64,000 bases of DNA from contig OY761159.2 in NCBI GenBank assembly GCA_963664395.2, forward strand, positions 3,968,001-4,032,000, written 5' to 3'. The first letter of the stretch is position 1; the number at the start of each line of letters is the position of its first letter. Below, piece after piece: positions 1,069 to 5,026 of this stretch. This stretch comes from Candidatus Binatia bacterium (GTDB taxonomy: Bacteria > Desulfobacterota > Binatia > Bin18). The translations under genes were made by a program, and so were the position numbers. The notes under the pieces are model-generated. The model did not search any database. It was given only the letters and a program-made list of their open reading frames with translations, and was not told the DNA's origin.

Positions 1069-2187
1069 TCAAATACCGTAAAACTTTGCGGCATTTGTTC
1101 CCAGGATCTTATCTACCGATGCCGTTGGTAAAGAGGAAAGTACCTCACGTGCCTTCCGGACCGGATCGACAAATCCTTCGGCATGCGGGTAGTCGGAGCC
1201 GATAAAGAAGCGGTCGTCGCCGGCAAACTGAACCATAAGGGGAAACATCTTTTCCTCCGGATCACCGTTAACCCAGATATTACGGGCAAAATACTCGCTT
1301 GCCGGTCGTTTCATCTGTGAAGTGTGGCCCATATACTTGTAGCGATAATCGACCCGCTCCAGCCACTCGCCCACCCAGCCGACCATGGCTTCAATGGTCC
1401 CGACGCGCAGCTTTGGAAAGCGCTCAAACACGCCATCATACATCATCGCCGTGACAGCCTGACGCGGGTCTTGGATGATACTCATGGTGATATACATGAA
1501 GCCGGGATTGCGGTCGCGAAACCACTCACTACCGGTGTAGTTCGGATGACCGACGAGGTGGAGACCAACGCTGAGATTAAGATCTTGGGCTGCGGCCCAA
1601 ACTGGATCGTACTCCGGCAGGCCAAAGCTCTTGCCATCGATCGGTGCAGCCGCGATGAAGATTGTCCGGCCGCCGAGCTTGGCGATGCGCTCCATCTCCC
1701 GCACGGCCAACTGCGGATCACGCATCGAGATATGAGCGGCGGGGTAGAGACGATTTTTATGCGGGGAACAGATCTCGAATGTCCAGGTGTTATAGGCGCG
1801 GCAGTGGGCATCGGCCAGGTAAGGGTCGGCTATTTCGCCCTCCCAAAACAGGCCGAGGGTCGGATAGATGACTTGGGATTCCATCTTCTCGTCATCTAAG
1901 AACTGCACCCGCTTGTCCATGTCTTCCCAATCCGCACTATAATAATGGTAGCGATCGAAAGTGCTCAGGTCCTGGCCCGCCTCTTTTTGGCCATAGCCGA
2001 CAACACCGCCCAGAAATTCCTCGACATCAAAAACATTCATGGGCTTGTCATCAACCAGAAATTTCTTCTCGCCACTCACGGGGTCGGTCGCGCTTTTCAT
2101 GGCTCGCTCTCGATAGGCCGGATCAATATAACGCTCAAACAAGTCTAAGGGCTCAATAAAATGGGCATCTCCATCAACGACTTTCAT
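1069..2187 (-). CDS. Amidohydrolase_2 family metal-dependent hydrolase/decarboxylase
   Basis: N-terminal DGDAH, LH, FERFPKLR, GSDYPHAEG and ILGTNA motifs; GGAGG RBS. Confidence 0.9.
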   Translation of the reverse strand: MKVVDGDAHFIEPLDLFERYIDPAYRERAMKSATDPVSGEKKFLVDDKPMNVFDVEEFLGGVVGYGQKEAGQDLSTFDRYHYYSADWEDMDKRVQFLDDEKMESQVIYPTLGLFWEGEIADPYLADAHCRAYNTWTFEICSPHKNRLYPAAHISMRDPQLAVREMERIAKLGGRTIFIAAAPIDGKSFGLPEYDPVWAAAQDLNLSVGLHLVGHPNYTGSEWFRDRNPGFMYITMSIIQDPRQAVTAMMYDGVFERFPKLRVGTIEAMVGWVGEWLERVDYRYKYMGHTSQMKRPASEYFARNIWVNGDPEEKMFPLMVQFAGDDRFFIGSDYPHAEGFVDPVRKAREVLSSLPTASVDKILGTNAAKFYGI

Positions 2188-2338
2188 ATACAGCCCTCCT
2201 TTCGTATGGTTTTATCGTGTGTCTCTTATGGTGGTACTGCTGTCTGTGAGGAAATGCAAGGGAACTGAACCGAATGGACCTGTGGTAGGCGCAGGGTATT
2301 TAGGCTACAACTGGGGCAACACAAGAGGAGGCAGCAGT

Positions 2339-2959
2339 ATGGATACTCCAATTGAAATCATCGAGTTCTCAGATTACCTGTGACCCTGGTGCTTTCCGGC
2401 CGCGGAGCGGCTCCGAAAGATCAAGGAACGCTATGGTGACCGGGTAACCGTCAAATGGCAGCCCTTTGCCTTGCGCCCGCACTATGAGGCCACCCCGTTC
2501 CAGTTTAAGGACAGCTATGTGGAGCACGCCTGGCGTAAGGCATCGGCACTGGCTGAGCCAGACGGTCTGGCATATTCCATGTGGCCGCATGAAGAATTCC
2601 CACGCTGGAGCATGCCTGGCTTGGAAGCTGGTATGGCCGCTCAGCGTCAGGGGGAGGATGTCTTCCTCCGTTTTCACACGGGATTGTTTCGTTCTTTTTT
2701 CATTGAGAACAAGAGTCTGATTGAAAAAGAGACCTGTGTTGCTGTTGCCCGGCACGTTGGCCTCGATATGAACGCCTTCCTGCGTGATATTGAAGATAAA
2801 GCCTTACAAGACCAGGTTCGTCAGCAATGTGAAGACGCGGTGAATACGTATTTCGTGAGTGCGGTTCCTACTGTCCTCATTGGCGGTAAAACGCGCCAAA
2901 TCGGCATGGTACCGGCTGAAGCCTACCTGGAAGACCTTGCGAGGCTCGGAGTCGCATAA
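2339..2959 (+). CDS. DsbA/FrnE-like thioredoxin-fold protein, probable selenoprotein (UxxC)
   Basis: GAGGAGG RBS, ATG 2339, MDTPIEIIEFSDYL-TGA(2381-2383)-PWCFPAAERL in frame with track ORF 2471..2959; cis-Pro motif SAVPT near C-terminus. Confidence 0.88.
2392..2419 (+). promoter_or_regulatory. Candidate bacterial SECIS hairpin
   Basis: CTTTC-CG-GCCGC-[GGA]-GCGGC-TCC-GAAAG; G-initiated apical loop starts 20 nt after the in-frame TGA. Confidence 0.7.
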
Positions 2960-2968
2960 AGGCCGTAT

Positions 2969-3223
2969 ATGGCAGACAAGGATGAACATACATTTCACTT
3001 GCGCTTCTCCCTGAGTACTCAAATTCCCCTGGAATCGTGGGATGATGAAGATTTTGAGGGAGACGAGTGGTTGAACGAATGGGAAATAAAAGTAAAGCCG
3101 GGTCTGGTCCGAGAAGTTTTTACATATTTGCGCCAGTTTGAAGGTTGGAGTTGCCATATCCGCAATCGCGGTGTGTCTCCGATTGATGAAATTGAAATCG
3201 TGATGCACAAAGAGGAGGGGTAA
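2969..3223 (+). CDS. Small acidic hypothetical protein, operonic with the DsbA-like gene
   Basis: ATG 9 nt after upstream stop; protein-like composition; followed by terminator. Confidence 0.75.
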   Translation: MADKDEHTFHLRFSLSTQIPLESWDDEDFEGDEWLNEWEIKVKPGLVREVFTYLRQFEGWSCHIRNRGVSPIDEIEIVMHKEEG

Positions 3224-3271
3224 GACTCACAATAGTGCGGCGCTTTCGCCTATACGCATACTGTCTGGGGC

Positions 3272-3308
3272 AAGACAAAAGGCAGGCATTATGCCTGCCT
3301 TTTGTCTT
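3272..3308. terminator. Bidirectional intrinsic terminator
   Basis: AAGACAAAAGGCAGGCAT-T-ATGCCTGCCTTTTGTCTT perfect 18-bp inverted repeat between convergent genes. Confidence 0.85.
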
Positions 3309-3337
3309 TTAAGAGATTGCTCTCTGTTATCAGACAA

Positions 3338-5026
3338 CTAGACTTGAGTTGAGCCCAATAAGTTCCCACCAAGCGATGGATGACCAACGCTCTTATCGCC
3401 GAACACGTTAATCAGCGAGGTCTTGCCGGATTTGAGTGCGCGCTCCAGAGCAGGCACGATTTCATCTGGCTGCTCCACATGCTCGGTGTATACACCCATG
3501 GGTTCAAAGACCTTGTCGTAGCGGATGTCCTTAACCATATCGAACGGATCGGTGCGGCCCTTGAGCAGGGGCATCGACTCAAACGTTGGACCCCACGAAC
3601 TATTGTTCCACAACAGGGTAATAATCGGGATGTTGTATTTGGCTGCGGTTTCCATATCCATACCGCCGATACCCAGACCACCGTCGCCGCTGACAACGAT
3701 AACTTGCTTGCCCGGACGACCGAGTTGGACACCAATACCCATGCCTACGCCGTGTCCGACTGGGGCAAGTGGCCCGGCGTCTACAATCTGACCCGGTTCA
3801 TGAGCGGTAAACCACTGACTGGTGTAGCCACTCAGAGTGAAGCTATCGATAATCAGGGTTGCGTCTTTGTCGATCACCGAGGTGAGGTCTTTGGCCAGAC
3901 GGTCAGGATGGATCGGACTTGCGCTATGGTTTTGCTGTTCACGGTCGTTGATGAGCTTGTTATAGTTCTCGCGTACCTCAACCATGTTTTGGAGCCACGG
4001 ACTCTCGCGCTTGGCACTAAAGTCCAGCTGCATTTCTTTGATTTTGTCGATCATCTGACGGAGTACGAGCTTGGGATCACCGACGATGCCGACTTCTGCT
4101 GGTACATGCCAGCCTACACGCTGGGGTGTGGCATCAACCTGGATATAGGTGGCTTTGTCGCTCCATGTAGGAGGCTGGCCGAACTTTTCTCCGCTCCAGA
4201 ACTTGAATCCAACGGCTAAGACAACGTCAGCTTCGCCTGTAAACGGCTTTTTCCACGCACCACGAACGGCGAGCGGATTATCTTCGTCAACCGCACCTTG
4301 ACCGGCACGACGGCAATAGACCGGGGTGCTGGTGAGTTCAGCCAGTTCTTTCAGTTCAGCCTCGGCACCGGACCAGAAAATACCGTCTCCACCAGCGATG
4401 AGCGGCTTTTTCGACTGAAAGATGAGTTCAACGGCGCGCTCAATCTGGCGCGGGTCGCCTTGGAAACGGAGTTCATCCGGACTGTAGACTTTTGCGCCTT
4501 TGCGCTGCTTGGATTCGTCACCCTGGTGGTAGAGAATATTGGTTGGAATTTCGAGCAGGGAGACGCCCTGGGGTGCTGAGGTGGCTTCACGAAATGCCTG
4601 ACGCAGGTCGATTTCAATCGTCGACCAGTCAAGCACGCGCTTGGCAAACTTTGAGAAAGAGCTGACCACGTCAGAGCCATAGGCTTCTTGGAAGGAGCCG
4701 ATAAGGTCCTCGGTTGTGGGGTGCTGGCCAGCGAGACAGATGACGGCGCTATTTGTCAGGCCAGCGACGCAGAGGCCGGTCACTGCGTTGGTCAGGCCAC
4801 ACCCGGCAGTGACACAGCAGATGCCGGGTTTTCCTGTCACACGGGCATAGCCGTCTGCCGCGTAAGCGGTCGCTTGTTCGTGGCGCATGTGGATAAGTTT
4901 GATACCATTATCTCTGAGGGTAGCCAGAATGGGGAAGGTATGCCCGCCATTCACGGCAAACATATATTCAACCTTTTGTTCCTGTAAGATACGTCCAATA
5001 AGCGTCCCACCATCAACTGTTGCCAT
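3338..5026 (-). CDS. Thiamine pyrophosphate-dependent enzyme (acetolactate synthase-like / 2-hydroxyacyl-CoA lyase-like)
   Basis: RHEQ catalytic Glu, GDG...NNSSWG TPP motif; AGGAGG before MATVDGG at 5026. Confidence 0.9.
   Translation of the reverse strand: MATVDGGTLIGRILQEQKVEYMFAVNGGHTFPILATLRDNGIKLIHMRHEQATAYAADGYARVTGKPGICCVTAGCGLTNAVTGLCVAGLTNSAVICLAGQHPTTEDLIGSFQEAYGSDVVSSFSKFAKRVLDWSTIEIDLRQAFREATSAPQGVSLLEIPTNILYHQGDESKQRKGAKVYSPDELRFQGDPRQIERAVELIFQSKKPLIAGGDGIFWSGAEAELKELAELTSTPVYCRRAGQGAVDEDNPLAVRGAWKKPFTGEADVVLAVGFKFWSGEKFGQPPTWSDKATYIQVDATPQRVGWHVPAEVGIVGDPKLVLRQMIDKIKEMQLDFSAKRESPWLQNMVEVRENYNKLINDREQQNHSASPIHPDRLAKDLTSVIDKDATLIIDSFTLSGYTSQWFTAHEPGQIVDAGPLAPVGHGVGMGIGVQLGRPGKQVIVVSGDGGLGIGGMDMETAAKYNIPIITLLWNNSSWGPTFESMPLLKGRTDPFDMVKDIRYDKVFEPMGVYTEHVEQPDEIVPALERALKSGKTSLINVFGDKSVGHPSLGGNLLGSTQV

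Follow-up and report, generated by a model that had tools for sequence, protein, structure and literature searches.

We analyzed a 64,000-nucleotide stretch of the genome of a Candidatus Binatia bacterium (assembly GCA_963664395.2, contig OY761159.2, positions 3,968,001 to 4,032,000 of the forward strand; this whole stretch is called the window, and positions are counted from its first letter) and found that the gene at 2339-2959 carries an in-frame UGA at the first position of a U-P-W-C redox motif. We assign a probability of roughly 0.92 to the reading that this UGA (2381-2383) is decoded as selenocysteine (Sec) by way of a downstream hairpin, giving a 206-residue cytoplasmic protein with a DsbA fold of the FrnE type. 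The evidence presented here establishes the conserved pairing of UGA with Cys at one column of the family, the fold, and the presence of the Sec machinery. A first-pass annotation of this DNA had pointed to the ribosome-binding site, the ATG, the in-frame TGA, and the hairpin, and we confirm that each of them is present; its interpretation is partly supported, as the core reading is right, while a partnership with the neighboring gene and the lower stem of the hairpin are unsupported. The features of the gene are as follows.

2326-2331, + strand: Shine-Dalgarno sequence AGGAGG, read directly (GAGGAGG spans 2325-2331), 7 nt upstream of the ATG at 2339.
2339-2959, + strand: predicted selenoprotein gene, FrnE-type DsbA-like thiol-disulfide oxidoreductase of 206 amino acids (ATG 2339, TAA 2957-2959).
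2381-2383, + strand: in-frame UGA, predicted U15, first position of the U-P-W-C redox motif; conserved as TGA in some relatives and replaced by Cys in others.
2390-2392, + strand: codon of the putative resolving cysteine C18 of U-P-W-C, an invariant column in an alignment of 31 Sec and Cys forms.
2392-2419, + strand: SECIS-like hairpin (SECIS, selenocysteine insertion sequence), with upper stem 2398-2403/2407-2412, GGA loop 2404-2406, and lower stem 2392-2396/2415-2419.
2867-2869, + strand: codon of P177 in an A-V-P-T-V loop, likewise an invariant column of the 31 forms.

Direct reading and translation bore out the strong ribosome-binding site and the ATG at 2339, with FSDYL-TGA-PWC in frame with the downstream open reading frame (ORF): codon 15 is TGA, and the frame then stays open until the TAA. 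When the TGA is read as Sec, the N terminus becomes MDTPIEIIEFSDYL-U-PWCFPAAERL, its first residues being MDTPIEIIEF; under genetic code table 11, the longest ORF has 162 codons and begins at the TTG at 2471. The Pfam domain DSBA (PF01323) matches residues 7-195 of the read-through protein (E 8.1e-23, 81.6 bits against a cut-off of 25.6), so that the 14 codons upstream of the TGA and the motif downstream of it both belong to the domain. NCBIfam gave no specific model for the protein (best match 35.5 bits, cut-off 190). Purine-rich GGAG or GGGG motifs occupy the location of the Shine-Dalgarno sequence in orthologous loci, and a sigma-70 promoter scan of 2100-3450 returned no site.

To judge the TGA, the most informative evidence is its conservation. 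A scan of one genome per species produced 46 related loci, 21 of them close and 25 distant. The close loci, which are 71-94% identical to the study protein and are labeled Candidatus Binatia or Binatota apart from one Thermodesulfobacteriota, have frames that are otherwise open over 205-206 codons or slightly more, and together with the study gene they carry TGA at codon 15 in 22/22 cases. The same was observed in metagenomes, where 22 loci were found: the 21 that include the N terminus (50-86% identity), one of which lies on a contig already represented among the genome loci, all have TGA at codon 15. The 25 distant genome loci (26-43% identity; Myxococcota, SAR324, Spirochaetes, and others) all read SDYL-C-PWC.

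Because these distant loci had been ascertained in part with the pattern DYLCPWCF, we made a census independent of the motif, using 201 genomes sampled from the class of the study organism, of which 110 contained a match at E <= 1e-15 (114 rows). TGA was present in 60 of the 113 full-length matches. Every full-length row at 59% identity or above had one TGA (24/24; one further row is a contig-edge fragment that stops short of the column), and the 89 rows at 25-43% identity (25-38% for all but one) comprised 36 with one TGA and 53 without, by hand count. The TGA fell exactly at the U-PWC column in 38/38 members of a distant TGA set, which consists of all 36 of these census rows, one orthologue row at 59% identity, and one row from a phylum-wide sample; that sample had a match at E <= 1e-20 in 6 of 301 genomes, with TGA in 4 of the 6. 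Twenty of the 53 TGA-free rows were fetched and all contain CPWC, and Cys (TGC or TGT) thus occupies the U15 column in 45/45 other homologues, namely the 25 distant loci and the 20 census rows. The homologue alignment bears out the proposal that the TGA sits at the first Cys of a CPWC site, and relatives do not uniformly carry TGC or TGT, since the close orthologues all have TGA. On both sides of the codon, the encoded residues are retained despite variation at synonymous sites (Ser11, Asp12, Tyr13, and Leu14 before it; Pro16, Cys18, Phe/Tyr19, and Pro20 after it), which is the signature of translation through the codon.

The genome is equipped to decode Sec. The study assembly (5.04 Mb, 14 contigs, 95.9% complete) encodes selA (596 bits), selB (390 bits), and selD (316 bits), each scoring higher than its curated cut-off, as well as a tRNA-Sec with anticodon TCA adjoining selA, so the search for this machinery that the first-pass annotation had called for was positive on all four counts. 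SelD corresponds to the C-terminal half of a 755-residue ORF (L018:1390-3657, - strand, which is contig G000:C1 near 4,506,000-4,508,500), and its active-site region, CGGCGSK, is the Cys form and not the Sec form. Judged by eye from the sequence, the N-terminal half of this ORF resembles a pyridine-nucleotide-disulfide (NADH-dehydrogenase-like) oxidoreductase. TGA terminates 7 of the 30 long ORFs in the window as an ordinary stop, and the genome has therefore not reassigned it.

An AlphaFold model of the selenoprotein, built on the alignment of the 31 Sec and Cys forms, has a mean predicted local distance difference test score (pLDDT) of 95.5 and a predicted template modeling score (pTM) of 0.92; the fold is that of thioredoxin with a helical insertion. 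Residues 5-11 form strand 1, helix 1 runs from residue 18 right after U-P-W, and P177, which from knowledge of the fold we take to be the expected cis-Pro, stands directly before the strand 178-181. With the domain starting at residue 7 and strand 1 at residue 5, there is no room for a signal peptide, which supports the earlier assignment of the protein to the cytoplasm. The top six Foldseek matches include five entries of Deinococcus radiodurans FrnE (E 2.5e-10 to 1.1e-9, template modeling (TM) score 0.77-0.79, 22-23% identity), followed by YjbH, other cytoplasmic DsbA-like proteins, and kappa-class GST/HCCA isomerases.

Downstream of the UGA, the lower stem of the hairpin pairs CUUUC (2392-2396) with GAAAG (2415-2419), and the loop starts 20 nt past the UGA. 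According to the part of a recent review that deals with it, the consensus of the bacterial SECIS (bSECIS) has an apical loop of 3-9 nt, an upper stem of 4-16 bp, and a minimum free energy of -7.5 kcal/mol or lower (PMC13188914), with a G at loop position 1 or 2 (most often GG or GU) and 16-37 nt between UGA and loop (PMC13188914). The study hairpin agrees with this consensus throughout, having a GGA loop, a 6-bp upper stem, a 20-nt spacing, and a minimum free energy of -16.6 kcal/mol for the 45-nt stretch that contains it. Codons 21-24 (GCC GCG GAG CGG), which make up the stem-loop, are each represented by a single codon in all 18 distinct close orthologues. As background, single-codon use was found for 19 of 124 degenerate codons whose amino acid is invariant in these 18 orthologues, and the four codons, named beforehand, are all among the 19 (hypergeometric p ~4e-4 by our own arithmetic, on sequences that are related). 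In a second group of orthologues, codon 23 specifies Val and not Glu, and the hairpin at this location is another one, CUGCRGC[SGUNC]GCY(U)GCAG, which includes a bulged U and carries GU in its loop. Covariation is seen at one of its pairs: of 18 distinct rows, 8 have G-C, 7 have A-U, 1 has G-U, and 2 leave it unpaired. The pair joins two synonymous sites (Ala GCG/GCA and Leu CUG/UUG), and the observed covariation was reached in 3 of 500 shuffles.

Sec and Cys forms were also compared with a stem test that called for at least 4 bp, a loop start 18-24 nt after the codon, and a G in the first two loop positions; one metagenome locus, L083, was excluded. The test was passed by 31/35 orthologue Sec, 36/37 distant Sec, and 24/44 Cys sequences. 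In the Sec sequences that passed, the loop started at +18 to +21 in 31/31 orthologues and 32/36 distant forms; of the 29 Cys sequences whose stem reached 4 bp, 11 had such a loop start. At least four of five pairs in a fixed CGUGC register were found in 19/37 distant Sec versus 2/44 Cys sequences, and the seventh codon after the UGA was GCC in 30/37 Sec versus 8/44 Cys sequences. These comparisons show constraint at the sequence level and indicate that the RNA sequence of the hairpin is under selection, and we read the upper stem-loop at +20 as the putative functional element. What stands of the hairpin as first described is thus its presence, its agreement with the published bSECIS model, and a conserved upper stem-loop; the lower CTTTC/GAAAG stem was found only in the study sequence and its nearest relative and is not conserved among orthologues.

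Several observations weigh against this interpretation. Taken by itself, the hairpin is no more than chance would give, and it is the conservation that exceeds chance. The folding z-score of the study hairpin was not significant (-0.67 over 60 nt; -1.47 over 45 nt, with 18/200 shuffles equal), and six relatives gave values from -1.30 to +0.75. RNAalifold on 22 orthologues yielded a consensus of only -2.39 kcal/mol with zero compensatory pairs, which is poor because the two groups use different hairpin registers. Greater folding stability of Sec than of Cys forms in the 45-nt zone was considered and rejected, the means being -12.9 and -15.5 kcal/mol, respectively (one-sided Mann-Whitney p 0.9998). 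An Rfam scan of 2330-2480 at E <= 10 gave no SECIS family, just a chance match to a snoRNA (E 6.4). The coding sequence for A-A-V-R-L-R is hairpin-prone by itself, and the bSECIS model is permissive, a simplified version of it being passed by 24/44 Cys forms. The compared sequences are kin, so the counts given above overstate their independence. Finally, Sec insertion itself, the catalytic cycle, and the physiological substrate are matters that we infer and do not observe directly.

Other explanations of the TGA have to be set against these results. One holds that the TGA is a true stop, that the 14-codon frame before it is a leader or is untranslated, and that the product starts downstream as a DsbA fold without CxxC. 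The databases seem to speak for it, as does the 162-residue ORF of table 11: a search with the read-through protein retrieved 54 database proteins, none of which spans more than 89% of the query and all of which begin after the TGA or are frameshifted, and of 15 that were aligned, 13 start at an M or V after the motif and two are frameshifted. However, the called starts differ between relatives (M or V at 'VRLQ', or M at residues 38 and 62), and we regard them as artefacts of standard gene calling, which systematically truncates this gene. This agrees with the first-pass annotation, which had expected gene callers to shorten the 206-residue recoded protein. PF01323 begins at residue 7, and the called starts would leave out strand 1 and the first part of helix 1; over codons 1-24, the encoded residues are conserved with variation at synonymous sites, and the column holds Cys in all 45 of the other homologues. 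A true stop is, on this evidence, very improbable.

Readthrough that does not, or not only, insert Sec is likewise improbable, if by a little less. The Sec machinery can deliver Cys at UGA when selenium is limiting, and near-cognate suppression could place Trp or Cys. Set against such readings are the complete Sec pathway, a position-specific hairpin under synonymous constraint, and the use of TGA as an ordinary stop elsewhere in the genome. The least credible account is a pseudogene with a nonsense mutation, or a TGA introduced by faulty base calling or assembly. The family does offer an example of error or decay within a single contig: the metagenome contig L083 has a second in-frame TGA (1584-1586) at the otherwise invariant W82, which is probably a sequencing error or the mark of a decaying copy. 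Yet the frame after the TGA is open in every orthologous locus that includes the gene start, with L083 the sole exception, and the same TGA recurs in 80 loci of independent assemblies, a conservation that in practice refutes the base-call error named earlier as a possible objection. The stretch 2200-3330 was found nearly word for word in runs of 8 studies, including sponge metagenome runs and six metatranscriptome libraries, indicating that the organism or very close strains recur across several sample sets. Contigs from four metatranscriptome libraries (two studies) include the TGA and all agree at its three letters, although contigs from RNA libraries may contain DNA, which counts against leaning on them, and prove neither transcription nor a single transcript.

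Taken together, decoding of the UGA as Sec remains the preferred reading, and the protein most likely acts in the cytoplasm to reduce or isomerize disulfides, with Sec as its nucleophile. We propose that the hairpin inside the coding sequence, whose loop lies 20 nt after the UGA, would recruit SelB with Sec-tRNA(Sec), so that the ribosome would read through the UGA to give the 206-residue protein. The active site, U15-P-W-C18, would lie at the N terminus of helix 1; the U15 selenolate would attack substrate disulfides or other oxidized thiols to form a selenenyl-sulfide, which C18 may then resolve. Re-reduction would fall to some cellular reductant. The C-terminal CxxxxC tail with which D. radiodurans FrnE (DrFrnE) regenerates its active site is absent: the C terminus, ...AEAYLEDLARLGVA, has no Cys pair.

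To place the gene among its homologues, a quick FastTree was computed for 124 rows (80 Sec and 44 Cys) after masking the Sec/Cys column and excluding L083; its Cys rows are an incomplete set, 25 coming from the search with the motif pattern and 20 from the 53 TGA-free census rows. The study gene belongs to a clade (support 99) whose 43 rows all have Sec. The tree requires at least 12 changes between Sec and Cys, 7 of which are forced by well-supported branches, a pattern that fits the dynamic exchange of Sec and Cys described in the part of the literature drawn on here (PMC1794560). It is conceivable, although we hold it to be doubtful, that the hairpin-prone A-A-V-R-L-R segment acted as a ready-made proto-SECIS that enabled repeated switches between Cys and Sec, and that the study clade became fixed for Sec while its hairpin was refined under synonymous constraint. 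If true, the family would be an unusually clear natural system for the origin of a SECIS inside a coding sequence.

The region downstream of the gene contains the following features.

2969-3223, + strand: acidic ORF of 84 residues, conserved, function not assigned; it starts 9 nt past the stop of the predicted selenoprotein gene on the same strand.
3280-3310, both strands (sites 3280-3300): palindromic terminator-like hairpin, AGGCAGGCAT TATGCCTGCCT, flanked by A and T runs, between the 84-residue ORF and a convergent thiamine pyrophosphate (TPP)-enzyme gene.
L073:3257-3475, L074:2863-3081, L076:1720-1989, L078:3217-3450, and L086:3326-3559, all - strand: ORF of 72-89 residues in relatives.

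The 84-residue protein has at least 65 short homologues in the database, none with a Pfam domain, and itself gave no match in Pfam or NCBIfam. Its family shares the strongly conserved motifs LRFSLS, WDDEDFEGDEW, KPGL, RNRG, and EIEIV. The structural model is moderately confident (pLDDT 83). A Foldseek search of the PDB found no clear solved relative (best E 0.37), the best Z in a wide VIA-align comparison was 5.5, below the meaningful level, and the ESM Atlas returned just 'hypothetical protein' clusters. The 84-residue gene follows the selenoprotein gene in 17/21 genome loci and 6/21 metagenome loci; four genomes have the two genes separated, either by 7-130 kb or by location on different contigs, and in each of these the 84-residue gene has kept its convergent arrangement with the TPP-enzyme gene. 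Its location is thus tied to that of the TPP-enzyme gene, and many Sec-form loci are without it next door. The suggestion that the 84-residue protein is a partner of the selenoprotein fails on co-occurrence, and we rejected it. Contigs from the RNA libraries span both genes, which does not by itself show a single transcript.

In several soil-type loci, the place of the 84-residue ORF between the selenoprotein gene and the TPP-enzyme gene is taken by the unrelated, conserved ORF of 72-89 residues listed above, which lies on the opposite strand and has two CxxC pairs (MVKVFCDRCN...CQECF). In one relative (L095:1752-2636, - strand), the 84-residue gene directly follows a different ORF of 294 residues; by eye, the sequence of this ORF resembles the polyphosphate kinase 2 family.

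Elsewhere in the study genome, a candidate for a second DsbA-type selenoprotein, this one secreted, was noticed on contig G000:C1 at about 423,200-424,216 (L093:1000-1977, + strand). It has a signal-peptide-like N terminus (MKPHGQKRLRLVSAFLLTGVVLAPGALRA) and a long helical region, followed by a thioredoxin-type domain with SDYQ-TGA-PYC.

The main value of these results is a correction of annotation, and their novelty is low. All 54 public Binatia entries found for the family are truncated or frameshifted and are without the redox motif, so that annotation and metabolic reconstructions of these sponge- and soil-associated bacteria miss a selenoenzyme. Use of Sec in FrnE-type proteins appears to be widespread in Binatia, and a known family gains a lineage and many Sec/Cys pairs; the understanding of the Sec decoding mechanism is unchanged.

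Among known systems, periplasmic DsbA of the E. coli type is an oxidase that is reoxidized by DsbB. The study protein resembles it in the thioredoxin fold, the helical insertion, the CxxC-type motif, and the cis-Pro loop, but it has no export signal, MDTPIEIIEF leading into strand 1, and the fold match is weaker (TM score 0.48-0.62). The YjbH/SpxH adaptor (6ghb, 6gho) and the kappa-class GST/HCCA isomerases (3fz5, 2imd, 1r4w) share the DsbA-like fold with a helical insertion (TM score 0.72-0.77, sequence E 9e-8 to 1e-7); YjbH is a ClpXP adaptor and the isomerases depend on glutathione, whereas nothing in the study protein points to either role.

The closest structural match is DrFrnE (DR_0659; PDB 5cnw, 5co3, 5coh, 5cp1, 5xwh), with a sequence E of 1.5e-6. 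In the sections of PMC8945050 that bear on this point, FrnE proteins are described as thiol oxidoreductases that carry a CP(W/F)C motif and are predicted to be cytoplasmic, and DrFrnE as a disulfide isomerase and reductase in vitro whose mutant is sensitive to cadmium and diamide. The study protein, which has no signal peptide and whose U-P-W-C fits C-P-(W/F)-C, agrees with the FrnE proteins, and differs from DrFrnE in having Sec for the first Cys, 206 residues against chains of 260, and no CxxxxC tail. The same sections state that the C-terminal CxxxxC regenerates the active site in many FrnE members but not in all, and that the FrnE proteins of Streptomyces roseofulvus and D. maricopensis also are without the tail (PMC8945050); the tail is therefore, as far as these sections go, not a strict criterion.

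As for the selenoprotein family, a 'DsbA-like protein, COG2761, UxxC' appears as a new selenoprotein family with nine Sargasso Sea sequences and a predicted SECIS in the passages on it by Zhang, Fomenko and Gladyshev (2005, PMC1088965). A DsbA-like UxxC selenoprotein is listed in several Deltaproteobacteria and Firmicutes in the relevant portion of PMC1794560, and the corresponding entry of a 2026 review reads 'DsbA-like protein form 1, PF01323, UxxC' (PMC13188914). The host lineage Binatia is not named in those portions of the three papers that describe the family (PMC1088965, PMC13188914, PMC1794560), and a literature search combining 'binat*' and 'selenoprotein*' gave, among the matches listed, only work unrelated by title. 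The first-pass annotation had called the gene a hidden selenoprotein, which is apt insofar as gene callers miss it, but the novelty so implied was overstated, as the COG2761 UxxC proteins have been known since 2005, going by the passages cited (PMC1088965). Its identity at the subfamily level with the Sargasso Sea or NIP15863.1 sequences we infer from the COG and Pfam labels and the motif. Like the family as these sources portray it, the study protein combines PF01323 with Sec in place of the first Cys of CxxC, has a SECIS-like hairpin just downstream with G in the apical loop, and has widespread Cys homologues. Since DsbA-like UxxC COG2761 selenoproteins were published in 2005, the study gene is a further member of that known family and not a new kind.

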